Position numbers and translations under genes: made by a program. Below, piece after piece: positions 688 to 61,011 of a stretch of 64,000 nucleotides of DNA (position 1 is its first letter; every line of letters begins with the position of its first letter). The notes beneath the pieces are model-generated. The model ran no database searches, was not told where the DNA came from, and was given only the letters and a program-made list of their open reading frames with translations. This DNA comes from Planctomycetia bacterium. Lineage in GTDB: Bacteria > Planctomycetota > Planctomycetia > Pirellulales > Thermoguttaceae. Where the stretch lies: the NCBI GenBank assembly GCA_030527015.1, contig JAUNBR010000003.1, positions 28,624 to 92,623 on the forward strand, given 5' to 3'.

Positions 688-729
688 TATATCCGATGCA
701 TGGTAAATTTCCATTTCTCCGACATCTTT
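688..729 (+). repeat. SIR105 5'-arm fragment
   Basis: TATATCCGATGCATGGTAAATTTCCATTTCTCCGACATCTT matches consensus positions 1-41 and abuts the next full copy. Confidence 0.6.
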
Positions 730-836
730 TATACCCCAGATACACTACAAAATTCCGCTTCACCGGCATTTTGCTTCGCTGAAAAAACCTGCTTTTAGAG
801 CCGCACAAAACGAAATTTTAAATTGGAACCAGTATA
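730..836 (+). repeat. SIR105 full copy (subfamily B-like)
   Basis: TATACCCCAGATACAC...AAAATTCCGCTTCACCGGCATTTT..AAAAAACC..CGAAATTTTAAATTGGAACCAGTATA. Confidence 0.9.
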
Positions 837-985
837 ACCTGCTCTCTGTACGGCCGATATTTTCAGCGAGATAAACTGTATCTGATGCAATTATTTACTT
901 TTTAGCGTAAATGATACCGTGCCTGCCTAAACGCCAGAGGCATTAAAACCCATTTCTCCTGATTTCAGGGATTATCACTGTTTAT

Positions 986-3436: not shown

Positions 3437-3572
3437 CCGTTTATTCCTCAGAGCAAAAATTTTATCCGCCGATCCAGTCAAAATACTGAGAGCCTATTTT
3501 AAATTTTCATCTCTCGTGGCCTCAAAAACAGATATTTTTCGTAAAACACAAAATACCGGTAAAGAGACAATT

Positions 3573-3784
3573 TATACCCGATGTACCTATAAATTTTCAC
3601 TTCTCCGGCATTTTTATACCCGATACACTATAAAATTCCGCTTCTCCGGCATTTAGCTTCGCCGAAAATGCCTGCAGTCAGAGTCACACAAAACGGAAAT
3701 TTAAAATGGAACCAGTATATACTTCGCTGAAAACGCCGGTTAAGAACCACTCAAAACTTAAATTTAAATTGGAATCAGAGTATC
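3573..3784 (+). mobile_element. SIR105 copy split by insertion of another SIR105 copy (nested composite)
   Basis: Outer 5' part 3573-3614 ends ...CTCCGGCATTTT. Outer 3' part 3720-3784 resumes TACTTCGCTGAAAACGCC...AATTTAAATTGGAATCAGAGTATC. A complete inner copy lies between them. Confidence 0.8.
3615..3719 (+). repeat. SIR105 full copy (inner element of nested pair)
   Basis: TATACCCGATACACTATAAAATTCCGCTTCTCCGGCATTTAGCTTCGCCGAAAATGCC...GGAAATTTAAAATGGAACCAGTATA. Confidence 0.92.
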
Positions 3785-3818
3785 ATTTAATATGAACACG
3801 ACATGTTTCACGGAAATT

Positions 3819-4421
3819 TTATTCCGTAACCACCGCATTATTTTTCATGTTCTGTCCCAGCCGAAAAGCCTGCAGATTTATGTCGACATATGCTGGTTTC
3901 ACACACCGGCGAATCGCATCCAGCCAAAACTGACCAGAAATATCTGTTAAGGCAGTCGCCAGCGCACCCAATAAAACGACATTCGCACTACGTGGGCTGC
4001 CCAGCTGAACCGCGATCTGATTCGCGTCAAAATAAATAAGATGAGAAAAAGCCGCACGGAGACGTTCTTCCGCGTTTTCAGGATACACAGCAGTTCCTGA
4101 AGAAACGGTAACCGGCACGATCACCTGAGAATTTACCACCGCTAAACCATCTGGTTTCAGAAATTCTGCGTACCGTAAGGCCTCTATTCGTTCCATGGAC
4201 ATAAGAACTTCCGCCTCTCCCCGAGAAACCAGCGGACTATGAACCTGCGCACCGTAACGAATCTGCGCCACGACAGATCCTCCACGCTGAGCCATTCCAT
4301 GCACTTCATTCGTTTTCACGTCAAAACCCGCAAAACTTGCCGCCTGAGCACAAATTTCACTGGCCAGTAAAATACCCTGTCCGCCGACTCCTGCCAGCAC
4401 GATACTTTTTGTGTGTAACAT
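3819..4421 (-). CDS. iorB: indolepyruvate:ferredoxin oxidoreductase, beta subunit
   Basis: IVLAGVGGQGILLAS motif of the IorB / 2-oxoacid oxidoreductase gamma family. Lies directly downstream of iorA. The track start at 4442 is TTG; I prefer the ATG at 4421 (MLHTKS). Confidence 0.82.
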   Translation of the reverse strand: MLHTKSIVLAGVGGQGILLASEICAQAASFAGFDVKTNEVHGMAQRGGSVVAQIRYGAQVHSPLVSRGEAEVLMSMERIEALRYAEFLKPDGLAVVNSQVIVPVTVSSGTAVYPENAEERLRAAFSHLIYFDANQIAVQLGSPRSANVVLLGALATALTDISGQFWLDAIRRCVKPAYVDINLQAFRLGQNMKNNAVVTE

Positions 4422-7386: not shown

Positions 7387-7620
7387 ATGTCAGAAGACCA
7401 GAAAAAAAAAGAAGAAGCGATCGAAGTAACAGGTATCGTACTGGAAGCTGTACGGAATGGCTTTCGTGTCCAGCTGGAAAATAGCGAACATATCGTTTTA
7501 TGCCGGCTCGGTGGAAAAATGCGAAAAAATTATATCCGTGTCGTACCTGGGGATAAAGTAACAATTGAAGTCAGTCCATATGACCTCACTAAAGGACGTA
7601 TCGTGCACCGGGAACGTTAA
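7387..7620 (+). CDS. infA: translation initiation factor IF-1
   Basis: 77 aa S1-like protein. The G.V.E...N..F.V.L.N...V.....GKMRKN.IR...GD.V.VE.SPYDL.KGRI..R pattern is typical of IF-1. Confidence 0.95.
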
Positions 7621-7633
7621 TTTCCGGTATTTT

Positions 7634-16479: not shown

Positions 16480-16565
16480 AATATAACTCGCGGCACGGTG
16501 ACTGGCATTCTTTTAAACTTCATTTTGTATCGCCAGAAAACGAAAAGTTTAAGTCAGACCGATTT

Positions 16566-16670
16566 TATATCCGATACATGATGATTTTCACTTCCCCAGC
16601 ATTTTTACTTCGCTGAAAATGCCTGCTTTCAGAGCCACACAAAACGGAAATTTAAAGGAGAACCGATATA
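16566..16670 (+). repeat. SIR105 full copy
   Basis: TATATCCGATACATGATGATTTTCACTTCCCCAGCATTTTTACTTCGCTGAAAATGCC...GGAAATTTAAAGGAGAACCGATATA. Confidence 0.9.
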
Positions 16671-22106: not shown

Positions 22107-23111
22107 ATGAAAAAAAAGGTTATCGCCCTACTCTCCGGAGGTTTCGACAGTGCTCTGGCGGTGCGCATCATGCAGCGGGAGGGTTCTGAAGTGGAAGGAC
22201 TTCATGTCGTTACCCCTTTCGTAGAATCATACTCAGAAGCCAAAAAATGTGCCGATGATCTGGGAATTTTTTTTCACGCCGTATATACAGAGCCAACTTA
22301 TATCGAGATTCTTAAGCATCCACTTTTTGGATATGGAAAAGCGGCGAATCCCTGCCTGGACTGCCATCTTTTCATGTTAAAAATGGCAAAAAAACGTATG
22401 GAAGAAACAGGTGCCTGCGCTGTCATTACGGGAGAAGTGCTCGGGCAGCGGCCCATGAGCCAGAGGCGGCATCATTTAGAAATGCTGGAATTTCGTTCCG
22501 GCCTAAAAGGCAGATTACTGCGTCCGATCAGTGCAAAACTTTTACCCATCACGGAACCAGAAACCTCAGGAATGATTGACCGTGAAAAATTATATGGATT
22601 TCAGGGACGTGCCCGAGCTCCTTTACATTCTCTGGGGAAAAGCCTGGGTTTAACATATATCCCCGGTGCTTCTCCCGGATGCTGTCTGACCCAAAAATCT
22701 TTCGCTCCGCGCGTTTTTGACCTGATCCGTAACGCTCCACAGGCAAAAATGTGGGAATATGAGCTTTTACGCTTCGGCCGACATTTACGCCTGAATGATT
22801 CCACGCGCGTCATTATGGGGCGTAATGCAAAAGACTGTACCATCATTCGTGAAAAATTTCTTGAAAACTGTGCCGGCCGGAATGATCTGGCATATTTTGA
22901 ACCAGAAAATTATACTGGCCCCAGCATACTTTTAATAGGACAGATCACAGAAGAAACTCTGGTACAGGCAAAAATGCTTCAGATTCATTATTCCAAAAAT
23001 GCTCACATGGTTCCCGAAATCATTTTCAGACATTTTTCATCAAAAGAAGAAACGCTGGAAAAATTTATCCCTGTTACCGATATTTCTGTCTCAGAATATT
23101 CACCCCTGTAA
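22107..23111 (+). CDS. PP-loop ATPase, ThiI-like tRNA sulfurtransferase family (no THUMP domain)
   Basis: SGGFDS PP-loop at the N terminus and ITGEVLGQRPMSQ resembling ThiI TGESLGQVASQ. GAGGAGG RBS. Lies 18 nt after rnc. Confidence 0.7.
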   Translation: MKKKVIALLSGGFDSALAVRIMQREGSEVEGLHVVTPFVESYSEAKKCADDLGIFFHAVYTEPTYIEILKHPLFGYGKAANPCLDCHLFMLKMAKKRMEETGACAVITGEVLGQRPMSQRRHHLEMLEFRSGLKGRLLRPISAKLLPITEPETSGMIDREKLYGFQGRARAPLHSLGKSLGLTYIPGASPGCCLTQKSFAPRVFDLIRNAPQAKMWEYELLRFGRHLRLNDSTRVIMGRNAKDCTIIREKFLENCAGRNDLAYFEPENYTGPSILLIGQITEETLVQAKMLQIHYSKNAHMVPEIIFRHFSSKEETLEKFIPVTDISVSEYSPL

Positions 23112-23115
23112 CTTT

Positions 23116-23225
23116 TATTCCCGATATACTAATATAAATTTTCGCCTTCCCCGGCATTTTTGTTTCACTGAAAATACCTGCTTTCAGAACCGCATAAAAC
23201 GGAAATTTAAAGGAAAACCAGTATT
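23116..23225 (+). repeat. SIR105 full copy
   Basis: TATTCCCGATATACTAATATAAATTTTCGCC...GGAAATTTAAAGGAAAACCAGTATT. Starts 5 nt after the stop of the ThiI-like gene. Confidence 0.9.
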
Positions 23226-24881: not shown

Positions 24882-25089
24882 TTATCCAGATGCATTATAA
24901 GAATGACGTATTACCGGCATTTTATACCCGATGCACTATGAATTTTCACTTTCCCGGCATTTTTGCTTCGCCGAAAATACCTGTTTTCTGAACCGCACAA
25001 AACGGAAATTTAATGCAGAACCAGTATTCTCGGTAAAATGCCGGCACCCAGAACCACGCAAAACGAAAATTTTACGTGGAGCCAAGATA
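24882..25089 (+). mobile_element. SIR105 copy split by insertion of another SIR105 copy (nested composite)
   Basis: Outer 5' part 24882-24922 ends ...TACCGGCATTT. Outer 3' part 25028-25089 resumes TCTCGGTAAAATGCCGGCACCCAGAACCACGCAAAACGAAAATTTTACGTGGAGCCAAGATA. Confidence 0.75.
24923..25027 (+). repeat. SIR105 full copy (inner element of nested pair)
   Basis: TATACCCGATGCACTATGAATTTTCACTTTCCCGGCATTTTTGCTTCGCCGAAAATACC...GGAAATTTAATGCAGAACCAGTAT. Confidence 0.9.
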
Positions 25090-25196
25090 AAGTAAAATTA
25101 CAGAATATGGCACTTTTCGAGGTAATGTACATTCCTAAATATAACCCCGGAAAATAACCACATACCGGCCAGGGAATCCGCATTTTAGGCCAAAAA

Positions 25197-27743
25197 TCAG
25201 GGAAGCATGATGACGCGGAACCCGAGATAATGCCGACGATTCGTGGGTTCTTCTTTAAGACGGCACGCAGAACGGCAGCGTCTTGTGGGAGACGTCCATC
25301 CACCACCACGCGCCACACGATCTGTACCCTCTGTCGGGCCAGTGGGATCCGTAACATCCTCCTCAGTAAAAGATTTATGCCAGTCGGCACTCCATTCCCA
25401 TACGTTTCCGTGCATATCATGGATTCCCCAGGCATTCGGCTTACGCATCCCCACCGGACAGGGTTTACCGTCAGTATTTTTCGTATACCATGCCACTTCA
25501 TTAAGATGATAACATGCCTCTTCTCTACTGGTAATATTTTTTCCATTATTAAGACTGGCGGTGGATCCCGCCCGACAGGCATACTCCCACTGTGCCTCCG
25601 TGGGAAGATAAATGTCGAAACCTTTCTCACGTAATTTCTCGCAAAATATTTGGCAGTCTTCCCAACTTACCTGTTCCACGGGAAAGTTCTGTGTGAGTAT
25701 TCCCTTCACTTTATAGGCACTGGTGCCCCAGCGCGAAAAACAGGCCGGATTATTACGCATAACAGTCGCCCACATTAACTGTGTAACCTCTGTCTCCATG
25801 ATCCAAAAACCTTCAGAAAAAGTAACCTTATGCTGTTTTTCGTCAGATTCCCGACCCAATTCATTTTTCGGTGACCCCATAATAAACTCACCCGGGGGAC
25901 ACCAGCGGAAGGCATACGTCACGCCATTAATTTTTTTTGTTATTCGGGTACCCGGTTTACGTTCTTTGGTACGTGCAGAAGTTTTTTTCTTCTCTCCGGA
26001 AGTTTTTATTTCTTCCGCAGACTCATTATCCGTTTTTCCAGAAGCTGCTTTCTCAGTTTTCGTTTCTTTCTCTGCAGAAGTTTTCGCTTCTTTCTCCGCC
26101 TCCCCAGTTTCGCTTTCCTTTTCCGTTCCCGATTCGGCTTTATCTTCTGGTTTAGCTTCCGCTTCTTTTTCCGCGGATCCAGCTTCTGCTTCCTTTTCCG
26201 TTTCAGCGCCAGCTTCCGCTTTCTTTTCTGTTTCAGATTCCGCTTTATCCTCTGTAGTTTCAGCCTCTGTTCCTTCGAATTTTATACCATTTTTTTCCGC
26301 GTACTTTTCCGCCACGGATCCATTCATTCCATGAATAATGAGTTTTGGACACCCGTCAAAAACCTTATCCTCAATTACCACCACGCTCTCTGGAACAGTA
26401 ACCGTATGAAGTGCCGAACATCCGTAAAACGCACGAGCCATTATCGTCGTAACGCCTTCAGGAATAAAAATTTCCTCAAGATGTGATCTGGAAAACGCAC
26501 GGCCTTCGATCGTCGTGACACCGTCAGGAATGACATAAGTTCCACTTTTCATCTGTGGACAGGCCAGTAAAGCTTTTCCATCTTTCGAGAAAAGTACGCC
26601 ATCATGAACAGCATAATGATGATTGTCAGACGCGAATTGGATTTTCTCCAGATTCCTGCAGTGCCCAAACACGCCGCTTTCAATATACGTAACACTATCA
26701 GGAATCGTAACACTCGTAAGCGTGTCACAGCCTCTAAACGTACTGGCATTAATCGCCTTTACGGGCAGATTCTCAATCATTTCGGGTATCTTAACTTCAG
26801 AATCAGAGCCCAAATATTTTGTTAAAATGACATAATCGGCACGGGTCGCATAATCATATTTTACCACGGAAACATCCTCTTCCGTTTCCGGAATGACAGA
26901 AGCTGGCTTATTATCCGTATCCGTGGCTTTCTCAGCAGATGTATTTTTTTCAGCAGACCTGTCTTTTTCAGAAGGAGAAACTTTTTCAGAAGATGTATTT
27001 TTTTCGATTTCCGGATTTCTTTGGACTATTTTTTCAGAAGTTCCCAGACCGCCCAGCAGCCAAATCAGCATGAGAAGTAACAGCACTCCCGCAGTAATAC
27101 CGCCCCCGAGAAACATCTGTGACTTCTTTTGTACCGTCGGGGCTTTTGGATGCAGCGGAGTTTTCTTTGTAGAAGGAAAGAGCGGAGAAACCGAATGTTT
27201 ATTCCCCTCTACAGACACATCTGGCGCCACAAAAAGAGAGGATAAAACATCCGACTCTGATTTCGTCTCAAGAGGGGGCACGGGAACAGTTTTTTTATTA
27301 ATCGCAGACGCAGAAACACTCGGCGGTAAATTCTTTTCTGCAGGAGACACACTCAGTACAGAACCGTCTTTCGGAGGAATTTTATTTTCCAGAGAAATCT
27401 TCGTCGAATGTAAGGAAACGTCCGCCGCTTCCACCGCCACCGCTTTCGGCGGACGAACGAATTCCAGCTCTTTCCTTAACTTGGCATCATACTCCTGTTT
27501 CTTTTCAGGATTTAAAAGAATGACCCGTGCCTGCGAAAGTTCATTCAAAATCTGCTGCGATTCCTGAGAGTATTTTCCCGTCTGAAAAGTCCGAATAAAC
27601 GTCATCTGTCGGTCCGCAGCATTAGAAATGACAGATTCCTGAGATTCAAGATTCTTGATTCCCAATAATCGATAATGACTGATAGGCCGTTCTTCCGGGG
27701 AAATACCGAGCCATTCGTGATATGGGTCAAAAGAAGCAGGCAT
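25197..27743 (-). CDS. multidomain protein: J-like domain, TM, BspA-type LRR, acidic linker, formylglycine-generating-enzyme (SUMF1) domain
   Basis: N-terminal DPYHEWLGI...HYRLLGI. One TM (GGGITAGVLLLLMLIWLLGG). IPD.VT.IE..AF repeats. EKEAE/KAE low-complexity linker. C-terminal FGE motifs (WEW.ADW, RGGGW, R.RSACR). Confidence 0.8.
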   Translation of the reverse strand: MPASFDPYHEWLGISPEERPISHYRLLGIKNLESQESVISNAADRQMTFIRTFQTGKYSQESQQILNELSQARVILLNPEKKQEYDAKLRKELEFVRPPKAVAVEAADVSLHSTKISLENKIPPKDGSVLSVSPAEKNLPPSVSASAINKKTVPVPPLETKSESDVLSSLFVAPDVSVEGNKHSVSPLFPSTKKTPLHPKAPTVQKKSQMFLGGGITAGVLLLLMLIWLLGGLGTSEKIVQRNPEIEKNTSSEKVSPSEKDRSAEKNTSAEKATDTDNKPASVIPETEEDVSVVKYDYATRADYVILTKYLGSDSEVKIPEMIENLPVKAINASTFRGCDTLTSVTIPDSVTYIESGVFGHCRNLEKIQFASDNHHYAVHDGVLFSKDGKALLACPQMKSGTYVIPDGVTTIEGRAFSRSHLEEIFIPEGVTTIMARAFYGCSALHTVTVPESVVVIEDKVFDGCPKLIIHGMNGSVAEKYAEKNGIKFEGTEAETTEDKAESETEKKAEAGAETEKEAEAGSAEKEAEAKPEDKAESGTEKESETGEAEKEAKTSAEKETKTEKAASGKTDNESAEEIKTSGEKKKTSARTKERKPGTRITKKINGVTYAFRWCPPGEFIMGSPKNELGRESDEKQHKVTFSEGFWIMETEVTQLMWATVMRNNPACFSRWGTSAYKVKGILTQNFPVEQVSWEDCQIFCEKLREKGFDIYLPTEAQWEYACRAGSTASLNNGKNITSREEACYHLNEVAWYTKNTDGKPCPVGMRKPNAWGIHDMHGNVWEWSADWHKSFTEEDVTDPTGPTEGTDRVARGGGWTSPTRRCRSACRLKEEPTNRRHYLGFRVIMLP

Positions 27744-34596: not shown

Positions 34597-34740
34597 TATA
34601 CCCGATGCATTATAAAATTCCGTTTCATCTTTCTGCCGACAGGTCGGCCGGCATTTTTGCTTCGCTGCCAGCAGCAGGCTGAACTGAAAATGCTTCTTTC
34701 AGAGCCGCACAAAACGGAAATTTAAACGAAAACCAGTATA
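34597..34740 (+). repeat. SIR105 long variant (two extra blocks, 144 nt)
   Basis: Consensus arms plus ATCTTTCTGCCGACAGGTCGG inserted before CCGGCATTTTT, and CCAGCAGCAGGCTGAACTG inserted in the central loop. Confidence 0.85.
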
Positions 34741-35627: not shown

Positions 35628-35751
35628 TATATGGTTTTCCTTTAAATTCTCGTTTTGTACGGCTCTGAAAACAGACATTTTCAGCGAAAAAAATACTTGG
35701 CATGCCGGTCGGCGAACATGAGAAACGGAAATTTATCGTGCATCAGATATA
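35628..35751 (-). repeat. SIR105 long variant (one extra block)
   Basis: TATATGGTTTTCCTTTAAATTCTCGTTTTGTACGGCTCTGAAAACAG... plus the GC-rich block CTTGGCATGCCGGTCGGCGAACATG before AGAAACGGAAATTTATCGTGCATCAGATATA. Confidence 0.8.
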
Positions 35752-35975: not shown

Positions 35976-36113
35976 TATGCTGGTTCCACTTTAAATTTCC
36001 ATTTTGTGCTGCTCTAAAAGAGGCATTTTTAGCCCAGCCTGCTGCCGGCAGCGAAGCAAAATGTCAGTCTGTCGGCCGAAAGGTGAAATGAAATTTTATA
36101 GTATATCGGGTAA
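35976..36113 (-). repeat. SIR105 long variant (two extra blocks, 138 nt)
   Basis: TATGCTGGTTCCACTTTAAATTTCC... with CCCAGCCTGCTGCCGGC in the loop and TCAGTCTGTCGGCCGAAAGGT before the arm. Same positions as in 34597-34740. Confidence 0.85.
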
Positions 36114-38215: not shown

Positions 38216-38220
38216 AAGTG

Positions 38221-38280
38221 TCAGAAAAGCAAAAATTTCGTGCCAGAAAAGCAAAAATTCATAGTGCATCGGATACAAAA
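38221..38280 (-). repeat. two SIR105 arm fragments
   Basis: CAGAAAAGCAAAAATTTCGTGC and CAGAAAAGCAAAAATTCATAGTGCATCGGATACA. Confidence 0.4.
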
Positions 38281-39800: not shown

Positions 39801-40008
39801 TATACCTGATACCATAAAAAAATTCATTTTCCGGCATCTTATACCCGATACACTGTAAATTTCCACTTCCTCCGTATTTTACTTCGCTGAAAATGTCTGT
39901 TTCAGAACCGCAAAAAATGGAATTTAAACGAAAACCTGTATATTTCGCGAAGAATATGTATATTTTCAGAGAAACAAAAAACGAAAATTTAAGGTAAAAC
40001 CGCCATAA
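39801..40008 (+). mobile_element. SIR105 copy split by insertion of another SIR105 copy (nested composite)
   Basis: Outer 5' part 39801-39839 ends ...TTCCGGCATCT. Outer 3' part 39943-40008 resumes TTTCGCGAAGAATATG...AAAAACGAAAATTTAAGGTAAAACCGCCATA. Confidence 0.65.
39840..39942 (+). repeat. SIR105 full copy (inner element of nested pair)
   Basis: TATACCCGATACACTGTAAATTTCCACTTCCTCCGTATTTTACTTCGCTGAAAATG...GGAATTTAAACGAAAACCTGTATA. Confidence 0.85.
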
Positions 40009-42772: not shown

Positions 42773-42858
42773 AATATATCTGACTTCATTTATATGAAAA
42801 GAAGCCTGATATTACCATTCCTCTTAATTATACAGCTCCCAATTTTAAATTTCCATTT

Positions 42859-42963
42859 TATACAGGATCTTCTTTAAATTCCTTTTTGCGCTGCTCTGAA
42901 ATCAGGCTTTTTTTTAAAGAAAAAATGCCGTGGACGCGGAAATTTATCGTGCATCAGAGATAT
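42859..42963 (-). repeat. SIR105 full copy, diverged
   Basis: TATACAGGATCTTCTTTAAATTCCTTTTTGCGCTGCTCTGAAATCAGG...GCGGAAATTTATCGTGCATCAGAGATA. Confidence 0.75.
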
Positions 42964-43062
42964 GCGCAGCCATAAAAAGGCAGCATTTCATGCATCGCAA
43001 AAACAGAGAAAAGAAAAATTTATCGCACGCCGGGCCAGATTATTTATCACATGCGGAGCACA

Positions 43063-44250
43063 TTATTTATCATACCACAAATTTTGCTGTTTTTTACGAT
43101 ATTCTCCCGCCGTCATTTTCAGCTGACGTATGAAAACCGTATTCATATAAGAGGCACTACAAAATCCCGCACGTTTTGAAATCGTCTCAAGCGTTAAATC
43201 GGTTCCACTGAGTAATTCTTTGGCCCGGTGTAACTGTGTCTGTAAAATTTCATCTTTCAGTGTTCGTTTTAACACCAGCTGAAACTGCCTTTCCAGTGTA
43301 CGACGTACCACATTCAGTTCTCGCGCCAGGGCCTTCACGTTCAGTCCATGACACGCTTCTCGCTGAATGATTCTCAGAGCCTTTATCACGAGCGCATTTT
43401 CGATCGCCCAGGTATCTGTCGACTCTCGACATACCACCGAAATCGGTGAAACCTGTAAATGACGTTCCGGCATTTTTTCTCCGCGCATCATGGTATGGAG
43501 CATCAGCGCGGCCTGGTAACCCACCTGAAACGCATTCTGAGACACCGTCGTAAGACCAGGTGACGCCAGCATACAGTGAATTTCATCATCATCCACTCCC
43601 ACCACCGATAAATCATCCGGCACACGCAGTCCCACAGTCCTGCATGACTGTAAAACGTGTAAGCCCACTAAATCATCGCACGCCATAAGACCACACGGTT
43701 TCGGCAGATTCAGTAACCACTGTGGAAACGGCTTTTTTTTCTCCGTCCAGCACTGTGAAAGTTCTTGCTGAGAAAACTCAAAAACATGACATTCCCCTTT
43801 CACGTATTTTACAAAACTTGATTTCCGAAGTTCCGAAAACTTGCGTCCTCGAAGACCTACAAAAGCAAAATGTGGTAAAAACCGTTCTTTCAGATGCTCT
43901 GCCGCCATCCGGGATGTCTCCGCGTAATTCGAATGAACACTCGCCACCGACGGAGCGCTGTTATCTGATATATCCACCAGCGGTATCCCCCGCCCCTGGG
44001 CATGATGGACCGCATCTCCCATATCGCGAACGATAATTCCATCTCCACGCCATGCTTCCAGCCAAAACGGTGGCGGACTGCTCGGCCCCCGTTCCTCATA
44101 CGATATATCCCACGGACCATGCTCCTTTATATACTGCGTTATCCCCCTCATTAATGTCTTACTGTACGAATTAATTGTCTCCACAAGAATCGCCACCCTA
44201 AAATGACCTCGTCTTGACTTTCTCAGCGTCTTTTTTTTCTGTTTTTTCAT
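43063..44250 (-). CDS. XylR-like regulator (periplasmic-binding-protein-like sensor + AraC HTH)
   Basis: 395 aa. N-terminal LacI/PBP-type fold (VAILVE...) and a C-terminal AraC-type HTH (GF.S.SYM..VF....G.T..EYR). Confidence 0.85.
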   Translation of the reverse strand: MKKQKKKTLRKSRRGHFRVAILVETINSYSKTLMRGITQYIKEHGPWDISYEERGPSSPPPFWLEAWRGDGIIVRDMGDAVHHAQGRGIPLVDISDNSAPSVASVHSNYAETSRMAAEHLKERFLPHFAFVGLRGRKFSELRKSSFVKYVKGECHVFEFSQQELSQCWTEKKKPFPQWLLNLPKPCGLMACDDLVGLHVLQSCRTVGLRVPDDLSVVGVDDDEIHCMLASPGLTTVSQNAFQVGYQAALMLHTMMRGEKMPERHLQVSPISVVCRESTDTWAIENALVIKALRIIQREACHGLNVKALARELNVVRRTLERQFQLVLKRTLKDEILQTQLHRAKELLSGTDLTLETISKRAGFCSASYMNTVFIRQLKMTAGEYRKKQQNLWYDK

Positions 44251-44267
44251 CCCTTCTCACCTAAACA

Positions 44268-44372
44268 TATTCTCTGTTTCTACTTCCAATTTTCGTTTTG
44301 TACGGCTCTGAACGCAGACATTTCAGTGACACAAAATGCTGCGAAAACGAATTTTTTAGTAGATCGGGTTAC
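44268..44372 (-). repeat. SIR105 degenerate copy
   Basis: ...CTACTTCCAATTTTCGTTTTGTACGGCTCTGAACGCAGACATTTCAGTGACACAAAATGC...CGAATTTTTTAGTAGATCGGGTTA. Confidence 0.55.
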
Positions 44373-44460
44373 GTCCCCAATTCTTTTCATTTCCCCTTCT
44401 CCGACTCAATAAACACCGATGCTCCATACCCTCTTAATGGCTCACTTCATTTCACGGTTT

Positions 44461-44567
44461 TATATCTGATGCACTATAAAATTCCGCTTCCTCGGCATTT
44501 TTGCTTCGCTGAAAATGCCTGCATTCAGAACCGCACAAAATGGAAATTTAAAATGGAATCAGGTATA
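44461..44567 (+). repeat. SIR105 full copy
   Basis: Near-consensus copy: TATATCTGATGCACTATAAAATTCCGCTTCCTCGGCATTTTTGCTTCGCTGAAAATGCC...GGAAATTTAAAATGGAATCAGGTATA. Confidence 0.95.
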
Positions 44568-44637
44568 TTATACATTCTCCACCATTATACTCGTTTTTTA
44601 TTTTTAGAAAAAGGTTTAACATAAAAATATTTCCAAA

Positions 44638-44745
44638 TATACTGTTTTTCCTTTAAATTTTCATTTTATTCGGCCACGAAAGCCAGCATTTTCAGTTAAA
44701 AGTAAAAAATGCTGGAAAATGGAAATTTATAGTGTCTCGGATATA
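44638..44745 (-). repeat. SIR105 full copy, diverged
   Basis: TATACTGTTTTTCCTTTAAATTTTCATTTTATTCGGCCACGAAAGCCAGCATTTTCAG...ATGGAAATTTATAGTGTCTCGGATATA. Confidence 0.8.
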
Positions 44746-44788
44746 AAAAGTGAATCATTTAGTTAAAATCAGAAAATGTGGAAATAAT

Positions 44789-45997
44789 TTAAGGACAGGA
44801 AATGTTATTTCGCAGAAACTGGCAGGTTTCACGGAGATTCGTTCCATGAGAAAAAAGTCCGCCACCGATCAGAAGCATGACGTCTGTTCCATAAGTTTCG
44901 AGCATTCGGTTCACGTTTTCGATTTTCATTCCGCCAGCAGGACAGGGAAAAATGGGAGAAAGGTGCGCCATTTTTTGTGTTGCCGCGGCGGCGATTTCTT
45001 TACATTCCTGGTGTGAAAAGGAAAATCGGCCTCCAAAATTTGGGAAGATCGTGGCGTCCGCACCCGACAGACGCGCGATTTGGCCGAAAAGGCATCCGTG
45101 AGAGATTCCGGCAGTATTTAAGACGAAAGAACCGAGAAAAGCGGGGTGCATGAAAATAGGCAGTGAAAAGTCGGGGTCTGATGAAAGTTCGCGCAAAATA
45201 TCGAAACCAGTCAGGCCAGGTGAAATAAGAACTCCACCGGCACCACATTCTTGGGCATAACGGGCACGACGGATTATTTCAGAATGCGGCGCGGTAATAT
45301 TCGGGACATAAATGCTGCGGTAACCCGTTTCGTCGTTCGCACGGCGAATGGCTGCGGTACAGGCAGTGACACGCTGAGAGAAGGGAGAAAAAGTCTGATT
45401 ACTGATGCCGTGATCGTCTTTAATGATGTCCATTCCGCCGCGTGCAAAATCGTAAGCCAGAGAGGCCAGATCTTCAGCGGAAAGTCCCTGTGGTTTCAGA
45501 GCGGTAAAAAGCAGCGGACGCCCATGAACCTGCAAAAGATTACGTATTCCTGTGATTCCGAATCGCGGGCCAGGAAAATGCTGGATGAGATTTTCCGAAA
45601 GATTCAGAGAAAGAACACGAATCCCGGGTTTAATGCTAATATTTCCGTAAACGACATTTAACAGCTGAGGAAGCTCTGGTGTCAGAACTTCATCCGCAAA
45701 ACTGATGCGGACTTTCGCGGTCACTTTCGGTGGCACCGGCACGGAGTGAGGAATACCAAGAAAATTTTCGGAGTCATTTTCATATTCCAGTGATACGATC
45801 TGTCCCAGAATTTTTTCAGGAATCTCGCCGGGGGGTAATAAATTTACGGGAAACTCCACCGTCTGCTCTGCGCAAATATCCAGCGCTTTTTTATGAAGTT
45901 CTTCGGGCGTATCTGCGGTGATGGAATATGTTATCTGACTGCGGGAACCAGAAAGTTGGGCGGATAAAGCATGGTTACAAAAAGTTTCAAAAAACAT
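44789..45997 (-). CDS. RuBisCO large-subunit-like protein (form IV, RLP)
   Basis: ALKPQGLS, GGMDIIKDDHG and LLIGGGLFSHG blocks align by eye with RuBisCO KPKLGLS, GG.DF.KDDE and GGG..HP. I prefer the ATG at 45997 (MFFETF). The longer track ORF runs into a repeat copy. Confidence 0.8.
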   Translation of the reverse strand: MFFETFCNHALSAQLSGSRSQITYSITADTPEELHKKALDICAEQTVEFPVNLLPPGEIPEKILGQIVSLEYENDSENFLGIPHSVPVPPKVTAKVRISFADEVLTPELPQLLNVVYGNISIKPGIRVLSLNLSENLIQHFPGPRFGITGIRNLLQVHGRPLLFTALKPQGLSAEDLASLAYDFARGGMDIIKDDHGISNQTFSPFSQRVTACTAAIRRANDETGYRSIYVPNITAPHSEIIRRARYAQECGAGGVLISPGLTGFDILRELSSDPDFSLPIFMHPAFLGSFVLNTAGISHGCLFGQIARLSGADATIFPNFGGRFSFSHQECKEIAAAATQKMAHLSPIFPCPAGGMKIENVNRMLETYGTDVMLLIGGGLFSHGTNLRETCQFLRNNISCP

Positions 45998-46058
45998 GAA
46001 TCTTAGATAAAAATAAAAAGTAATTTTAGCACACAAGAAAATCTTAATTTTCAGATAA

Positions 46059-46166
46059 TATACCCGATGCATTATAAAATTCCACTTTTCTGGCATTTTT
46101 ACTTTTCGCTGAAAACATGTGCTTTTAGCGCGGTAAAAAACGGAAATTTAAAGCAGAATCATTATA
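46059..46166 (+). repeat. SIR105 full copy, diverged
   Basis: TATACCCGATGCATTATAAAATTCCACTTTTCTGGCATTTTTAC...AAAAACGGAAATTTAAAGCAGAATCATTATA. Confidence 0.8.
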
Positions 46167-46189
46167 AATTTACAGTAGAATCGAGTATT

Positions 46190-46293
46190 TATACCCGATA
46201 CATATAAATTTCCGCTTCCCCGGCATTTTGCTTCGCTGAAAATGCCTGCTTTCCGAGCAGCACAAAACGGAAATTTAAAGTGGGACCAGTATA
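46190..46293 (+). repeat. SIR105 full copy
   Basis: Near-consensus copy: TATACCCGATACATATAAATTTCCGCTTCCCCGGCATTTTGCTTCGCTGAAAATGCC...GGAAATTTAAAGTGGGACCAGTATA. Confidence 0.95.
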
Positions 46294-46310
46294 CCAGAGA
46301 CATAATTTTA

Positions 46311-48497
46311 TTATCTGCCAGAGAAATTATCTTCTGGATTTACCATATCCGGATGAAGATCAGGGTTTTCTTCCATTTTACGTAAAACATTAAAAATGGT
46401 TTCGATAAACGTCTTTTCTGTGTATGGTGTGCCGACAGTTTTAGAATATTTGAAAGATTCCATCGTATTCTTAATAACATGGGGGGAATCCCAATCTAAA
46501 AGTTCGCGGACAATCACAATTGGCGGTCTATGATCTGGGTATAATTCCCGAATATCATTAATAAAAGCGGTCTTTTGCTGATAATCAGTAATATCCGTCA
46601 CGGCGACTAACAAAAGGAGGTATGGCCTGTTGGCCAGCGAATGCTGAATTGACTCCAGCGCGTGTCTTCCTGAAAAAACGACATCCAGTTCACATCCCCT
46701 GCGGTGGAGAATTTCACGTAAAGTGTCGACATCTCGATTTTTAGGATCCACTAATAAAACATGCTGACCAAAAAGCACTCCAGAAACTCTTTTAACCGCT
46801 TCGATGAGCGTATCTGCATCCGAGGGAAGAACGACTCGCTGGCTTTCTGAAAAATTTTTGTTGGCATAAGAGATAAATTGTTCCGTGGCCTGCGAATCAC
46901 TTTTCTGCAGGAAAACAAAAGGGGGAATCATATTTGCGTCGGCATAAATCTCTTCCACTTCCTGGGTAAAATCGATCACGCTTTCATAATCAGAAAGTCC
47001 TTCTATATTTAGAAGAATCGTATAAAAAAATTCGTCATTAGTAAATGAGTTATGTAGCCAAGTAATGGCTTTTTGTCCAGATTCTGTGAAGTATACCTCC
47101 ATTCCATTTAGGGAGAGAATATTCCGAATTTCTTCATTATATTCATGGGAAGAATCGACATACAGGACACGGTTTCTGTCTTCGGAAACCGCTTCCAGAT
47201 TAGCGGGCAAAACCTTCCCATTACTCATCTGGTTCCCGATATGATGAATTAATCCTTCCACCTCTTTCGCATTTCGCATGATGGTATGTAACTGTAATTC
47301 GGCATTTACGATATTTTGCACGAAGGGATATAACAGCTGAGAGGCCTTTAAAATATTATTAACAGGAAGCGCGATCGTTCGGTGAATTGTTTCCACACTG
47401 GTCTGCTGGGTATGTTTTTGTTCTTCTTTTAAAAGGTGAAACGTATTCATGGCCACGGCGATATCCCGGGCAAAAATTTCCATATACATCTGGTCTGTTG
47501 TCGTAAATGCGCCGGGGCGCGTACTTTCCACATTTAAAACGCCCAATAATGTTTTCTGAAAGAGAATGGGAACAGTCAGAGAAGAGCAGGAATTAATTCC
47601 ACCAGGAAGATAATGAATATCGTGAGAAATGTCAGTGCATAAATAACTTTTTTTTGTCGCGGCGACGTAACCTATAATGCCGTACCCATGATGACTGATT
47701 TTTACTGTGCGATTCTGAATTTCAGGTGTCATTCCGTACTGGAGAATCAGGTCTAGCTGATTTGTCTCGGGGTTTAATTCCCGTAACTCCAGCATTTCGT
47801 ATTTTAATAATTGTTTTGCGGTCTGAAGAATTCCATCCGTCAGCAGCTCAAATTGCTGCTGGCGAGTAAGTTCCTGAATGTCACATGGTTCCAGTTCATT
47901 CAGATGGTTCCCGTGATCGTGTAATAAATGAAGTTTTTTAATCTGTTCATGGGTGGGCGTAACATCCAAAATCGTAATGAGTAAAAAATCTTTAGGAGGG
48001 TTTAAATTTGGTTTCCATGGAGAAACTTCCATTTCAAAAAACCGGTCAGAAGCATCATGAAATTTACATAAGACAGTCTGGTCGGTTTCTCGCGCTTCTT
48101 TAGTAGGAACAAGAATCGGTTTCTCGAATTCTGGGTTATCAAATAAATTAAAAAAATCTTGATGCAGTAATTCCTTTTCGGGCATACGCAGTAAAGTTTC
48201 TGCGTATTTATTGTTCCAGATGACTTCATCCTGAGCGTCAAGAATAAGTACGGCGACAGAAATACTATTTAAAATTTGTTTTGCACGTTCATTTCTTTGC
48301 TGCAGCTGGGCCCACAGCTTTAACTGTTTTCCGGAGATGATACAATAATCATGATCTTCCATGTTTTCAGGAAGAGGAACGTTTCCCGATGTATCTTGAA
48401 TAGGTATGTGGGTAATGTCAAAATTTGAAGTGAATAATGGATGGTCATTTTGGGAATGGTGAGTATCTGCAAGAAAGAATAGATTTCTGATATTCAT
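46311..48497 (-). CDS. PAS-GAF sensor protein with two receiver-like domains, no recognisable output domain
   Basis: PAS-like ISVAVLILDAQDEVIWNN. GAF-like GIIGYVAATKKSYLC.D...D...LPG...SSLTVPI....LLGVLNVES. Two CheY-like blocks (RVLYVDSS..., HVLLVDPK...). I prefer the ATG at 48497; the track start at 48566 is GTG. Confidence 0.7.
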   Translation of the reverse strand: MNIRNLFFLADTHHSQNDHPLFTSNFDITHIPIQDTSGNVPLPENMEDHDYCIISGKQLKLWAQLQQRNERAKQILNSISVAVLILDAQDEVIWNNKYAETLLRMPEKELLHQDFFNLFDNPEFEKPILVPTKEARETDQTVLCKFHDASDRFFEMEVSPWKPNLNPPKDFLLITILDVTPTHEQIKKLHLLHDHGNHLNELEPCDIQELTRQQQFELLTDGILQTAKQLLKYEMLELRELNPETNQLDLILQYGMTPEIQNRTVKISHHGYGIIGYVAATKKSYLCTDISHDIHYLPGGINSCSSLTVPILFQKTLLGVLNVESTRPGAFTTTDQMYMEIFARDIAVAMNTFHLLKEEQKHTQQTSVETIHRTIALPVNNILKASQLLYPFVQNIVNAELQLHTIMRNAKEVEGLIHHIGNQMSNGKVLPANLEAVSEDRNRVLYVDSSHEYNEEIRNILSLNGMEVYFTESGQKAITWLHNSFTNDEFFYTILLNIEGLSDYESVIDFTQEVEEIYADANMIPPFVFLQKSDSQATEQFISYANKNFSESQRVVLPSDADTLIEAVKRVSGVLFGQHVLLVDPKNRDVDTLREILHRRGCELDVVFSGRHALESIQHSLANRPYLLLLVAVTDITDYQQKTAFINDIRELYPDHRPPIVIVRELLDWDSPHVIKNTMESFKYSKTVGTPYTEKTFIETIFNVLRKMEENPDLHPDMVNPEDNFSGR

Positions 48498-50463: not shown

Positions 50464-51162
50464 TCACTCACCACGAGGTAAAAGAAGGTAAACCAGGGTC
50501 ATAATACTCTGGAGAGTAGCGGCGACATAAGTCATCGCGGCGGCACGTAAAACGCGATTTACACTGCCGAGAGCATCTGAGGTAAAAATACCCATATTCG
50601 CCAGTTCGGCTTTTGCACGTGTGCTGGCATTAAATTCCACAGGTAAATTGATAATCTGGAAAAAGACGACAGCTGAAAAAAGGACGATTCCGGCCAAGAT
50701 AAGAGGCGGAAAGGAAAAGAGGATGCCTAAAATGAACATCCAGATACCCGCACCACTTCCAAAACCCGCCAGCGGAACGACAAGATTTCGGATGGTTAAG
50801 GGGGCGTACTTATGAGCGTGCTGAAGGGCGTGGCCCGCTTCGTGAGCCGCGACTCCCACGGCGGAGGCGGTAAATCCATGATAAACTTCTGGACTGAGGC
50901 GTAAAACTCGGGCAGAAGGGTCATAATGATCTGATAATGTGCCTTCCACCTGCTCGATCGCGACATCCATTAAACCCGCATTATCCAAAATCCGTCGCGC
51001 GGCCTGCGCTCCGGAGATGGAAGTCGGATGGCTCTGCCCAGACATAAACGCGGATTTCACCCATACTTGAGCCAGGAGTCCTAAAAGAAGAAATGGACCG
51101 ACCAAAATAAAATAAAGCGGATCCAAAACAATAAACGAAAAAATGGGGATTCCTGTAAACAT
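50464..51162 (-). CDS. zinc metallopeptidase (Zn_peptidase_2 / YugP-like)
   Basis: HEAGHALQH motif, membrane segments and AAGGAG RBS. Confidence 0.85.
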   Translation of the reverse strand: MFTGIPIFSFIVLDPLYFILVGPFLLLGLLAQVWVKSAFMSGQSHPTSISGAQAARRILDNAGLMDVAIEQVEGTLSDHYDPSARVLRLSPEVYHGFTASAVGVAAHEAGHALQHAHKYAPLTIRNLVVPLAGFGSGAGIWMFILGILFSFPPLILAGIVLFSAVVFFQIINLPVEFNASTRAKAELANMGIFTSDALGSVNRVLRAAAMTYVAATLQSIMTLVYLLLPRGE

Positions 51163-51813: not shown

Positions 51814-52509
51814 TCATATCCGCCCATTTTGCTGCGAAGTTCCTCTGAAAATGAGTAGGATATAATACAGAAGTGTCATGACGATTTGGAGCGTCGCCGC
51901 GATATAAGTCATGGCGGCAGCATTCAGTACCCGACTTACATGAAACTGCGCATCTTGAGAAAAAGCACCCATGTTAGCCAGCTGGGTTTTTGCACGAGAA
52001 CTGGCGTTAAATTCCACAGGTAAATTAATAATTTGAAATAAAACAGCAGCAGAAAAAAAGATTAAACCCGTTACCGCGAGAGGTTTCAGGGATATGATTA
52101 GTCCGAGGAAAAACATAATTAAACCGAGATTACTCCCGAAACCCGCAGCAGGAACGATTAAATTACGGAGTTTCAGAGGAAGATAATTCGTGGCGTGCTG
52201 CAGTGCATGGCCCGCTTCATGGGCAGCGACACCCACGGCGGAAGCGTCATAATTATTATAAACATCAGGACTTAATCGCAGAACCCGAGCTGTGGGATCA
52301 TAATGATCGGAAAGTGTTCCGGAAATCATTTCGATTTTTATATGATGTAAGCCGGCTTTATCTAAAATTTTTCGTGCTGTCTGATAACCGGATAAAACGG
52401 TATGATATTTTTGTCCAGATATAAAAGCAGATCTTACCCATGCCTGAGCGAAGATGCCTAAAAGAAAAAATGGACCGACAAGAATGAAATAAATGGGGTC
52501 TAATATCAT
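51814..52509 (-). CDS. zinc metallopeptidase (Zn_peptidase_2 / YugP-like), paralogue
   Basis: Collinear with 50464-51162: same HEAGHALQH, INLPVEFNAS and AAMTY.AATLQ blocks. Confidence 0.85.
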   Translation of the reverse strand: MILDPIYFILVGPFFLLGIFAQAWVRSAFISGQKYHTVLSGYQTARKILDKAGLHHIKIEMISGTLSDHYDPTARVLRLSPDVYNNYDASAVGVAAHEAGHALQHATNYLPLKLRNLIVPAAGFGSNLGLIMFFLGLIISLKPLAVTGLIFFSAAVLFQIINLPVEFNASSRAKTQLANMGAFSQDAQFHVSRVLNAAAMTYIAATLQIVMTLLYYILLIFRGTSQQNGRI

Positions 52510-58386: not shown

Positions 58387-58657
58387 TATATTCGACGTAT
58401 GATAAATTTTCGTTTTCTCGACATTTTTTATCGGATACACGATAAATTTCGCTTCTCTGATATTTTTGTGCTAAAAATATTTGCGTTTCTGCTGATTCTC
58501 CTGTAAATTTCCGTTTCATGCGGCTTTTAACGCAGACATTTTCAGCGAGAAAAAAATGCCAGAAAAGCGGAAATTTATCGTGCATCGGGTATAAAACCGC
58601 ATAAAATGAAAATTTAAAGGAGAGCCGGTATAAGGAAATTTATCGTGTATCAGTATA
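58387..58657. repeat. mosaic of at least 5 SIR105 pieces in both orientations
   Basis: Left-arm fragment 58387-58428. Left arm plus hairpin 58429-58495. Nearly full minus-orientation copy 58495-58593. Right-arm fragment 58596-58632. Left-arm fragment (inverted) 58633-58657. Confidence 0.7.
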
Positions 58658-59600: not shown

Positions 59601-59657
59601 AATCAGTTTAAACATAATCAAAACATTTTATATAATATTTTAGTGAAGGAAAATAAG

Positions 59658-60659
59658 ATGCCATTATTTGAGAGTTATGAACGAAGAATTGGCCAGATTA
59701 CTCCTGTGCTGGAGGAATATGGTTTTAAAAATATTGAGGAAGTCCGTGATTTTTGTCTTGAACGGGGCGTGGATCCTGCAGGAATTACGAAGAGCATTCA
59801 GCCGATCGCTTTTGAAAATGCGCTCTGGGCATACACACTGGGGTGTGGAATCGCGCTGAAGAAGGAGTGCAAAAAAGCGGCGGACGCGGCGGAGGCGATC
59901 GGTCTGGGTTTACAGGCTTTTTGTATTCCCGGTTCCGTGGCGGACCAGCGGCAGGTGGGGCTGGGCCATGGAAATCTTGCGGCCATGCTTTTAAGGGAAG
60001 AGACGAAATGTTTCTGTTTTTTGGCCGGGCATGAATCTTTTGCCGCTGCGGAGGGGGCGATCGGAATCGCGCGTTCTGCCAATAAAGTTCGCCAGACTCC
60101 TCTGCGTGTGATTCTGAATGGTCTGGGAAAAGACGCCGCTTTAATTATTAGTCGTATTAATGGTTTTACATATGTTCAGACGGAATACGATTACGCCACG
60201 GGCACTTTAAAAATCATTCGGGAAAAACCATATTCGGATGGTGAGCGTTCAAAAGTTCGTTGTTTTGGTGCCGATGATGTCAGTGAAGGTGTGGCGATCA
60301 TGCGTCATGAAGATGTGGACGTTTCGATTACAGGAAATTCCACGAATCCCACGCGTTTTCAGCATCCGGTGGCTGGAACGTATAAAAAATGGAGTGTCGA
60401 TAATGGGAAAAAATACTTTTCCGTCGCCTCCGGTGGTGGAACTGGGCGTACATTGCACCCGGATAATATGGCCGCGGGGCCGGCGTCTTATGGGATGACG
60501 GACACCATGGGCCGTATGCATTCCGACGCACAATTTGCGGGTTCCTCTTCTGTCCCGGCTCACGTGGAAATGATGGGGCTTATCGGAATGGGAAATAATC
60601 CCATGGTCGGCGCGACTGTGGCGGTGGCGGTGGCGGTGGAAGAATCATTTTCATCTTAA
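59658..60659 (+). CDS. GGGtGRT family protein
   Basis: Contains the name-giving ASGGGTGRTLHPDNMAAGPASYGMTD block. ATG at 59658 with GAAGGA upstream. The track start at 59643 is GTG. Confidence 0.8.
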   Translation: MPLFESYERRIGQITPVLEEYGFKNIEEVRDFCLERGVDPAGITKSIQPIAFENALWAYTLGCGIALKKECKKAADAAEAIGLGLQAFCIPGSVADQRQVGLGHGNLAAMLLREETKCFCFLAGHESFAAAEGAIGIARSANKVRQTPLRVILNGLGKDAALIISRINGFTYVQTEYDYATGTLKIIREKPYSDGERSKVRCFGADDVSEGVAIMRHEDVDVSITGNSTNPTRFQHPVAGTYKKWSVDNGKKYFSVASGGGTGRTLHPDNMAAGPASYGMTDTMGRMHSDAQFAGSSSVPAHVEMMGLIGMGNNPMVGATVAVAVAVEESFSS

Positions 60660-60872: not shown

Positions 60873-61011
60873 ATTTCCATTTTATGTGGCCACGAAAGTA
60901 GGATTCCCAGTCCAGTCTGTTCCGGCAGAGGGTATGGGCTGGTGATTTCCATTCATTTACGTGCCCCATCCGTCAGCGTGAATGCAGCGAGAAGCCTGGA
61001 GTTCCGGAAAA

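Follow-up and report, generated by a model that had tools for sequence, protein, structure and literature searches.

What does it mean when one copy of a repeat sits inside another copy of the same repeat? The locus at 3573-3784 raises this question. It belongs to a 64-kb stretch of DNA, analysed here as a whole and called the window, which is part of a 93.9-kb contig from a metagenome-assembled Planctomycetia bacterium (contig proteins include MDO4549782-802). The repeat in question is a 105-bp family that occupies most spacers between the genes of the window. Our analysis shows that copies of this family have inserted into older copies, and that the family has been mobile over a long period. 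We therefore consider it likely that the repeat is a small non-autonomous transposable element of ~105 bp, guided by T-tracts, directional in its insertion and able to insert into itself.

The preliminary description of the locus had read it as a complete copy seated in the central hairpin loop of another, and the sequence is as described. The 5' part of the outer copy ends with the left arm of its central hairpin (CCGGCATTTT). A complete inner copy follows, with its own central hairpin at 3648-3672. The outer copy then resumes (opening TACTTCGCTGAAAACGCCGG) with the loop TACTTCGCTG and, after it, the right arm AAAACGCCGG. The break lies exactly between consensus positions 41 and 42, and the flanking pieces are exactly complementary halves of one copy. 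Once the inner copy was excised, the rejoined outer copy could be aligned over the full length of the consensus (80% identity), and its junction showed neither loss nor duplication. This junction, CATTTT followed by TACTTCGCTG, is the loop variant of the intact copy at 16566-16670, one of two copies named earlier as intact counterparts; the other, at 32482, carries one T fewer. Nor are the flanking pieces unrelated fragments, as junction-anchored alignment of the flanks of the inner copy gave scores of 59 and 48, against 23 for the 99th percentile of shuffled flanks. The 337-bp spacer that holds the locus (3482-3818) consists of element copies nearly throughout.

Nesting recurs within the window. 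Seven nested cases were found, with both flanks verified in five (guests at 3615, 24923, 39840, 42860 and 58490), and the left flanks CGGCATTT and CGGCATCT of two further full copies pointed to additional nested cases. Five of the seven breaks fall at consensus positions 40-43, the T-run bordering the left arm and loop of the central hairpin, and all five guests lie in the orientation of their host. For such clustering, a uniform null gives p ~5e-6, and a null that restricts targets to the nine T-runs of a copy gives ~2e-3. The break point is thus not random, in line with the specific target that the earlier description had suggested from the break at the 5' edge of the hairpin loop. Cataloguing the break points across the window also revealed two at other positions (between 76 and 77, and at ~64-66). 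The loop edge is thus a hot spot and not an exclusive target. In the case at 688-882, the outer 3' remnant (837-882) restarts at about consensus position 56, with ~14 nt lost, while the joined host of the 42860 guest aligns to consensus positions 5-105. The nested cases and associated copies are collected in the table.

Coordinates of the nested copies and of the copies used to interpret them (positions in the window; breaks and model positions refer to the 105-bp consensus)
Feature	Position	Strand	Details
Outer (older) copy at the 3573-3784 locus, 5' part, TATACCCGATGTACCTATAAATTTTCACTTCTCCGGCATTTT	3573-3614	+	consensus 1-41; profile match to model 1-41, E 3.5e-6
Inner (younger) complete copy, TATACCCGAT...GGAACCAGTATA	3615-3719	+	model 1-105, E 2e-29; 91% identity to consensus
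Outer copy, 3' part, TACTTCGCTGAAAACGCC...GGAATCAGAGTATC	3720-3784	+	consensus 42-105; model 42-101 matched at 3721-3778
Degraded copy in opposite orientation, abutting the outer copy	3493-3576	-	model 15-96, E 8e-9
Intact reference copy with loop variant CATTTTTACTTCGCTG	16566-16670	+	uninterrupted form of the site interrupted between 3614 and 3720
Nested case, break between 40 and 43	24883-25090	+	outer 5' 24883-24922 (ends CCGGCATTT); inner 24923-25028; outer 3' 25029-25090 (CTCGGTAAAATGCCGG...); flank scores 32, 46
Nested case, break between 40 and 43	39801-40007	+	outer 5' 39801-39839 (ends CCGGCATCT); inner 39840-39942; outer 3' 39943-40007; flank scores 31, 32
Nested case, same 5' break	688-882	+	outer 5' 688-729 (ends GACATCTTT), model 1-40 at 688-727; inner 730-836; outer 3' remnant 837-882
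Doubly nested case, same 5' break	58387-58631	+	outer 5' 58387-58428 (ends CGACATTTTT); inner (+) 58429-58631; outer 3' part not clearly identifiable
Inverted copy splitting the inner (+) copy 58429-58631 at ~64-66	58490-58593	-	flank scores 43, 37
Nested case, break between 76 and 77	42829-43034	-	guest 42860-42962, same orientation, in old copy (43034-42963 + 42859-42829); flank scores 27, 35

The hosts are older than their guests, with 65-80% identity to the consensus for hosts and 84-91% for guests. The hosts of the four cleanest cases were only 58-67% identical to one another, and they differed in their loops and in the bases at the junction (CATTTT, CATTT or CATCT before the break). Since the hosts are mutually divergent and their junction bases differ, the nested copies represent independent insertions into older copies. 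Seven nested cases, in hosts that are older and unlike one another, support the view taken at the outset that the family is or was mobile and not a conserved regulatory site.

To describe the family as a whole, a profile was built from 35 full-length copies (consensus TATACCCGATACACTATAAATTTCCGCTTCCCCGGCATTTTGCTTCGCTGAAAATGCCTGCTTTCAGAGCCGCACAAAACGGAAATTTAAAGTGGAACCAGTATA). It gave 87 non-overlapping matches in the window at E<=0.05 and 77 at E<1e-3 (copies or fragments), 35 of them full length, and a family-derived 17-mer matched 71 times against 1.6 expected. Elements accounted for 11.5% of window bases and 40% of intergenic DNA, a load of ~1.1 copies per kb, and overlapped open reading frames (ORFs) by only 138 nt. 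They were present in 35 of the 43 intergenic intervals, with up to six copies per spacer. Pairwise identity between copies averaged 80% (range 67-97%), which indicates that the elements are of long standing and have remained heterogeneous. In the same sequencing run, short-read contigs end at family repeats every 2-5 kb, so that in practice the repeat fragments short-read assemblies at this spacing.

The unit is non-coding and 105 bp long, with ends 5'-TATAC...GTATA-3'. TATAC and GTATA match perfectly and form the outermost part of imperfect terminal inverted repeats of ~26 bp, with agreement at 21 of 26 nt between the start of the unit and the reverse complement of its end. In its entirety, the unit forms a single long, imperfect hairpin whose central stem (GGCATTTT/AAAATGCC) carries a 9-nt loop; neither half of the consensus folds alone, and there is no separate hairpin near each end. 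Folding of the consensus as single-stranded DNA gave -16.8 kcal/mol (z = -3.4) for one strand and -18.6 kcal/mol (z = -4.0) for the other. Copies were found on both strands (36 on the minus and 30 on the plus), and their orientation was unrelated to that of flanking genes (18 co-oriented and 20 anti-oriented in tandem gene contexts). Neighbouring copies shared an orientation in 22 instances and opposed each other in 9 (p = 0.03). Tandem amplification was rejected as the cause of these same-orientation clusters, as no long-period arrays were present. Rfam at gathering thresholds matched no family in the window, no tRNAs were found in it, and a transposase (including Y1/HUH) was likewise absent from it; NCBIfam or Pfam scans of 40 ORFs returned housekeeping genes only.

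We then considered what the element selects as a target, which the preliminary description had suggested to be specific in structure or in sequence. Among the 35 full copies, T occupied positions -3 to -1 of the 5' end in 71, 80 and 80%, respectively. The 3' flank was merely A/T-rich, with no comparable bias and no G at +1. TTT preceded 24 of 54 complete 5' ends (44%, against 5.5% expected; p = 1e-16), and NTT preceded 36 of 54. In the nested cases, the T's before the guest are those of the host itself, namely the ones that pair with the A-run of its right arm, with no extra T's. As the host hairpin needs exactly these T's and none are added, the T-run is target and not cargo. For the same reason, poly-T as a part of the element or as a retroposon-like tail was rejected. 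The upstream run comprised 3-4 T and never five or more, though 195 longer runs were free. The T's often carry on into the right flank, which places the cut within a T-tract. Two terminator-like hairpins, at 644-672 and 7607-7628, are followed by copies from 688 and 7634, with the element beginning at once or within 15 nt of the T-tail; terminator T-tracts may be frequent landing sites.

Target-site duplication was assessed in two ways. No copy-specific direct repeat of 2 to 5 nt flanked the copies at any offset. This leaves either no duplication or an invariant TA (the outer TA of each TATA), which is inseparable from the termini. Profile scores of the four rebuilt hosts favoured no duplication at 3573-3784 (3.7 bits) and 42860 (2.1 bits), and a TA duplication at 24923 (3.5 bits) and 39840 (0.7 bits). 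A 4-bp duplication of TATA was rejected: it would lengthen every rebuilt host, and it had the lowest score in four of the five added-base variants tested. Among the outcomes envisaged earlier (TA, none or other), a copy-specific repeat and TATA are therefore rejected, and the choice between TA and none is divided evenly over the rebuilt hosts.

Relatives of the family were sought in a scan of one genome per species. The matches listed, at least 18 loci, comprised related copies in three other planctomycete metagenome-assembled genomes (MAGs; JAUNBK01, JAUNAI01 and CAYTLK01) and six chance matches; the source genome itself was not among them. These sister families keep the ends TATACCCGAT(G/A)CAC... 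and ...GTGGAAnCnGTATA, such that the termini are conserved in four species-level families and form their most conserved part. A T-rich left flank is common to all three families from the other MAGs. Their central stems have another sequence with the pairing kept. At one pair, 12 sequences have G-C and 9 have T-A; at another, 14 have A-T and 3 have G-C. Across families, 83.7% of cells are paired, versus at most 54% with shifted partner columns. These compensatory changes suggest that the termini and hairpin are under functional constraint. Sister loci are much less dense, with about one copy per 4-8 kb. One of them (locus L012, in another MAG) contains a nested self-insertion of its own, placed after GAATTT and in the same orientation. 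The JGI metagenome contigs held no match to the nested junction or to a family-specific 25-mer, and scans of viral contigs and of the plasmid collection gave no similar sequence either.

A candidate autonomous element in the CAYTLK MAG (L011, 6022-7792) has two partial, inward-facing TATACCCGAT ends 1.77 kb apart. It was rejected, as the 439-aa ORF between them is glgC (glucose-1-phosphate adenylyltransferase). Comparison of orthologous spacers between the window and the sister MAGs found one shared gene, and both species have a copy downstream of it, so the pair offers no contrast of presence and absence. The gene (22107-23111 in the window) and its 57%-identical ortholog in the JAUNBK MAG are each followed by a copy in the same orientation just downstream (23116-23225, and L007 3926-4030). 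The shared copy reflects either an insertion older than the species split or coincidence, given the density of elements.

Several variant forms of the repeat were also noted. Copies at 34597-34740, 35976-36112 and 35632-35751 belong to a longer subfamily of 120-144 bp, which has the same termini and extra sequence on both arms of the central hairpin. Internal duplications of ~20 nt in the 5' arm of single copies occur at 38218-38259, where AATTTTTGCTTTTCTG(G/A)CAC is present twice, and at ~7420-7455 of L012; these are small slippage-type rearrangements inside old copies. At 16541-16565 and 46167-46189, a solitary ~25-nt fragment of the element's 3' end lies against the start of a full copy (at 16566 and 46190) head to tail, with a 0-2-nt spacer. 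The same arrangement is shared by both copies seen in the JAUNBK MAG, at ~3901-3925 before the copy at 3926 of L007 and on the minus strand of L013 just upstream of 7885. Such fragments could be a relic of tandem dimers or of circle junctions. Apparent 'solo halves' that break between 41 and 42 (18375, 48560, 54311 and 62913) proved on alignment to be old full copies with one half decayed, and were rejected as breakage products.

Our data suggest the following model. Being non-autonomous, the element must rely for its movement on an enzyme encoded elsewhere in the genome. Its 5' end is joined directly after a short T-run (typically NTTT), usually in or at the end of a longer T-tract, and its 3' end is followed by A or T, never by G. 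Within resident copies, the T4-5 run where the left arm meets the loop is the hot spot, especially in loop variants reading TTTT-TA/AT. The strand polarity of this T-run sets the orientation of the guest, so that nested copies at the loop edge point in the same direction. The interrupted outer copy then decays. Elements would build up only between genes because selection presumably removes insertions in genes.

A number of points weigh against this model. All family counts derive from one 64-kb window. We infer movement from nesting alone, and neither an empty site nor an autonomous partner was found. The left flank of the 42860 guest, GCGCA, is not T-rich, making the T-run a preference and not a requirement. 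The rebuilt hosts disagree on target duplication, with none favoured at 3573-3784 and 42860 and a TA favoured at 24923 and 39840. Two further points concern the enzyme. Transposases that bind inverted ends do not usually have a one-sided target, which argues against a DDE enzyme. The great length of the inverted ends, the absence of a distinct hairpin near each of them and near-equal numbers of copies on the two strands argue against a classical mechanism of the IS200/IS605 type.

Explanations that involve no repeated movement account poorly for the nested cases. A composite that formed once and was then copied as a unit, or else an assembly artefact or local tandem duplication, is barely credible. 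Tandem Repeats Finder does report 3571-3654 as two 41-nt units, and the source is a repeat-rich MAG. However, the outer copies of the cleanest cases are too unlike in sequence, junction bases and loops to share one origin, and tandem duplication of a 5' half cannot yield two 3' halves beside two 5' halves. Inner and outer copies differ by 23-47%, which rules out repeat collapse in general. Mis-assembly is ruled out for the cases at 24883-25090 and 42829-43034, as both lie inside contigs (L023 and L003) that are 100% identical to the window in Logan, an independent assembly of the same sequencing run (only short contigs of one run, SRR24915838, contain these genes, with no second strain among them). 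We regard a non-mobile regulatory or structural site (a terminator, protein-binding site or small RNA) as very unlikely. Its strictly intergenic location and a conserved hairpin with covariation would suit such a site, but orientation bears no relation to genes, a spacer may hold as many as six copies, nested and decayed copies exist, Rfam gave no match, and the hairpin is not followed by the T-tract that a terminator would need. The repeat may have a secondary host function beside its mobility; the nesting argues against a purely static site. More deserving of attention, if still doubtful, is a structural hot spot, in which the insertion machinery would recognise a resident copy by its extruded hairpin or cruciform loop (or the DNA would break there) and not by the sequence of its T-run. 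The stem-loop boundary received five of the seven nested breaks. It was used far more than the three sites reading TTT followed by A that are present in every copy, though only ~20% of copies have A or T after the loop T-run. Longer T-runs are not generally preferred, so run length alone is no explanation. There is also precedent, with passages of PMC3184786 describing insertion of IS1397 in REP palindromes and passages of PMC3119063 describing insertion of Haloquadratum SMR-A in palindromes of other mobile elements. Yet none of 26 rebuilt ordinary target sites folded across the junction, compared with 26% of control TTT sites, and we reject the idea that hairpin loops are targeted in general. 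On the opposite strand, the mirror site (GGCATTTT followed by CAGCG), which has the same geometry, received no insertions versus five, and a simple loop break would not impose a single orientation on all five. As the hosts are apparently loop variants with TTTT-TA/AT, the A/T requirement at +1 accounts for part of the excess at the loop edge. The remainder points to an extra local preference, possibly structural. Between the two kinds of target first suggested, the sequence rule (TTT before the element, no G after it) held and a general preference for hairpin loops was not supported. This makes a target specific in structure less likely than a rule of sequence with a residual hot spot.

Two enzyme classes could move a T-tract-guided element of this kind; neither reaches an even chance, and the remaining probability falls to something else. 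The 26-bp inverted ends conserved across species point to a protein binding both ends, as is typical of DDE transposases, and an invariant TA would correspond to a Correia-like MITE (a transposable element of the miniature inverted-repeat type). A classical MITE, for which a TA-specific DDE transposase of IS630/Tc1-mariner-like type would carry out double-stranded cut-and-paste (the proposal made for Correia elements), is accordingly a real possibility, if somewhat short of an even one. The outer TA of each TATA would then be the invariant duplication, and the loop would be hit since variants carry TTTT-TA. Consistent with this, conservation across the four families is highest in the imperfect inverted ends (21 of 26), the termini TATAC...GTATA resemble the TATAG...CTATA of Correia elements, and the absence of a copy-specific duplication fits a duplication that is always TA. 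Moreover, the hosts at 24923 and 39840 not only score better with TA restored but then match the existing loop variants TTTTAC and TTTTATTTC. Less compatible are the strong left/right asymmetry, unexpected for a symmetric TA target, and the better fit of the hosts at 3573-3784 and 42860 without an added TA. TTTA sites in the consensus of every copy (86-89 on each strand, antisense 15-18) are hardly used, and no such transposase was found in the window. The one-sided T-rich target, a possible lack of duplication, the conserved hairpin and species-specific sister families argue instead for a single-strand HUH/Y1 enzyme. In this alternative, which we rate slightly lower, an HUH/Y1 transposase (of RAYT/TIRYT or IS200/IS605-like type) would move the repeat in single-stranded form, recognising the hairpin and cutting 3' of NTTT without duplication. 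The repeat would then be a counterpart of REPINs and PATEs. The T-rich target does lie on the 5' side only, no copy-specific duplication was detected, two of the four rebuilt hosts fit better without one, and the whole-unit hairpin is kept by compensatory changes across species. Sister families that are species-specific and share termini suggest long vertical persistence, as in the REPIN-RAYT systems described in part of bioRxiv 10.1101/2021.07.10.451892. Also counted in its favour are the RAYT-like enzymes flanked by inverted repeats ('TIRYT') and the many tyrosine transposases of the planctomycete R. baltica that passages of PMC3733652 describe. It is opposed by the absence of a GTAG or CGTC tag, the absence of a distinct hairpin near each end, the 26-bp inverted ends (not an IS200/IS605 feature), the absence of strand bias among copies, the absence of a Y1 or HUH gene from the window, and the two rebuilt hosts that score better with TA. 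A bolder version, which we consider unlikely, is that a duplication-free, strand-polar element is moved by enzymes of a class so far unconnected with inverted-end repeats (e.g. a RAYT/TIRYT-like single-strand transposase), which would recognise the self-hairpin, land 3' of NTTT and use resident loop edges as a harmless landing pad. If true, this would have let one 105-bp family fill ~40% of the intergenic DNA of its lineage and persist through speciation.

Beyond the choice of enzyme, the nested copies of this T-tract-guided element are of use in themselves. Nesting provides a built-in relative clock, in which the host copy is older than its guest, and it supplies reconstructed 'empty sites' for a repeat of an uncultured and genetically intractable organism. 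Landing in its own copies would blunt the cost of the element to the host and may help explain its exceptional load. Neither textbook mechanism cleanly fits an element that combines inverted ends with a T-tract target on one side and shows no detectable duplication. Identifying the enzyme would thus be informative for how REP-, REPIN- and MITE-like repeats spread. It would also bear on the Correia elements and on SMR-A of Haloquadratum, for which no mobilising enzyme is yet known.

Other features of the window were recorded alongside the repeat. At ~44000-48000, GC skew shifts from ~-0.26 to +0.15-0.19 along with a switch in gene orientation, and element orientation does not clearly follow. 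This change might mark a replication origin or terminus, or just a change of coding strand. Paralogous Zn_peptidase_2 genes lie in tandem at 50464-51162 and 51814-52509, with two element copies in the spacer between them. The window also encodes an 848-aa protein with LRR_5 repeats and a formylglycine-generating (FGE-sulfatase) domain (25197-27743), a RuBisCO-large-subunit-like protein (44789-46096) and a GGGtGRT-family protein (59643-60659). A 62-nt tandem repeat of 2.4 copies at 61010-61154, in the spacer before 61566, is unrelated to the 105-bp family.

Compared with known systems, the repeat has several generic features of a prokaryotic MITE. It is small and non-coding, with many dispersed copies, terminal inverted repeats and, in its nesting, evidence of movement. 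Correia elements (NEMIS/CREE) of Neisseria are ~100-155 bp long with ~26-bp inverted ends, occur in hundreds of copies and make up ~2% of Neisseria genomes. TA-specific DDE mobilisation is assumed for them. The 105-bp repeat resembles these elements in its ~26-bp inverted ends, TATA(G/C)...(C/G)TATA termini, intergenic location, long hairpin and lack of a transposase next to copies. It differs in its planctomycete host and in its sequence, as the consensus TATACCCGATACAC... shares only TATA with the Correia end. It also differs in density (11.5% of the window versus ~2%) and in its one-sided T-run target, and its rebuilt hosts are split 2-2 over a TA duplication.

The closest functional parallel is SMR-A of Haloquadratum walsbyi. 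As described in passages of PMC3119063, it is ~110 bp long with prominent inverted terminal repeats, makes no target duplication, prefers palindromes of other mobile elements and has an unknown enzyme. Set side by side by description only, the two have in common their size, inverted ends and a palindrome hot spot. SMR-A is, however, archaeal, attacks PATEs and IS605-type transposons and not itself, and has at most a few dozen copies. REPINs and REPs with RAYT, and TIR repeats with TIRYT, likewise combine inverted conserved ends in one ~70-110-nt hairpin, are extragenic and often clustered, and have diverged families in related species (passages of PMC3116915 and PMC3733652). By the definitions given in part of PMC3733652, the 105-bp consensus is unlike a REP or REPIN in having neither a GTAG/CGTC tag nor a GC-rich palindrome in each half, and no RAYT gene lies in the window. 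The same source, in part, describes REP dimers in the centre of TATAGG...CCTATA palindromes in Anabaena variabilis (PMC3733652).

IS200/IS605 elements are unlike the 105-bp repeat in having no inverted ends, a hairpin near each end, a near-invariant target motif and strand bias, whereas the repeat shows inverted ends, a single central hairpin, a degenerate target (TTT in 44%) and no visible strand bias. The motifs are TTTAA for IS605, TTTAT for IS606 and TTAC for IS608. Shared with these elements and with PATEs (the latter as described in passages of PMC3119063) are insertion 3' of a short T-rich motif and a one-sided target. Insertion of these elements leaves no duplication and hairpins are essential to them; over duplication, the rebuilt hosts of the 105-bp repeat are split.

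Nesting itself has parallels. The small pneumococcal repeats BOX, RUP and SPRITE have inserted into one another (passages of PMC3049150), and IS1397 and IS621 insert into REPs (passages of PMC3184786). In all of these, and in nested plant MITEs, nesting is mostly between different families or with full insertion sequences. Nested MITEs are commonplace in plants, with cases reportedly described by Jiang and Wessler in 2001. Self-nesting is unmentioned in the searched passages of two reviews of prokaryotic MITEs (PMC3184786 and PMC10969869), and nested self-insertion is not described for REP/REPIN-RAYT systems in the searched parts of PMC3116915 and PMC3733652. The 105-bp repeat is an undescribed family of small non-autonomous mobile repeats, of a kind already known. 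To our knowledge of the open-access literature, a recurrent self-insertion hot spot with one position and orientation has not been reported for a bacterial MITE. Together with a very high load and the pairing of a one-sided T-tract target with inverted ends, this hot spot makes up the unusual traits of the family.

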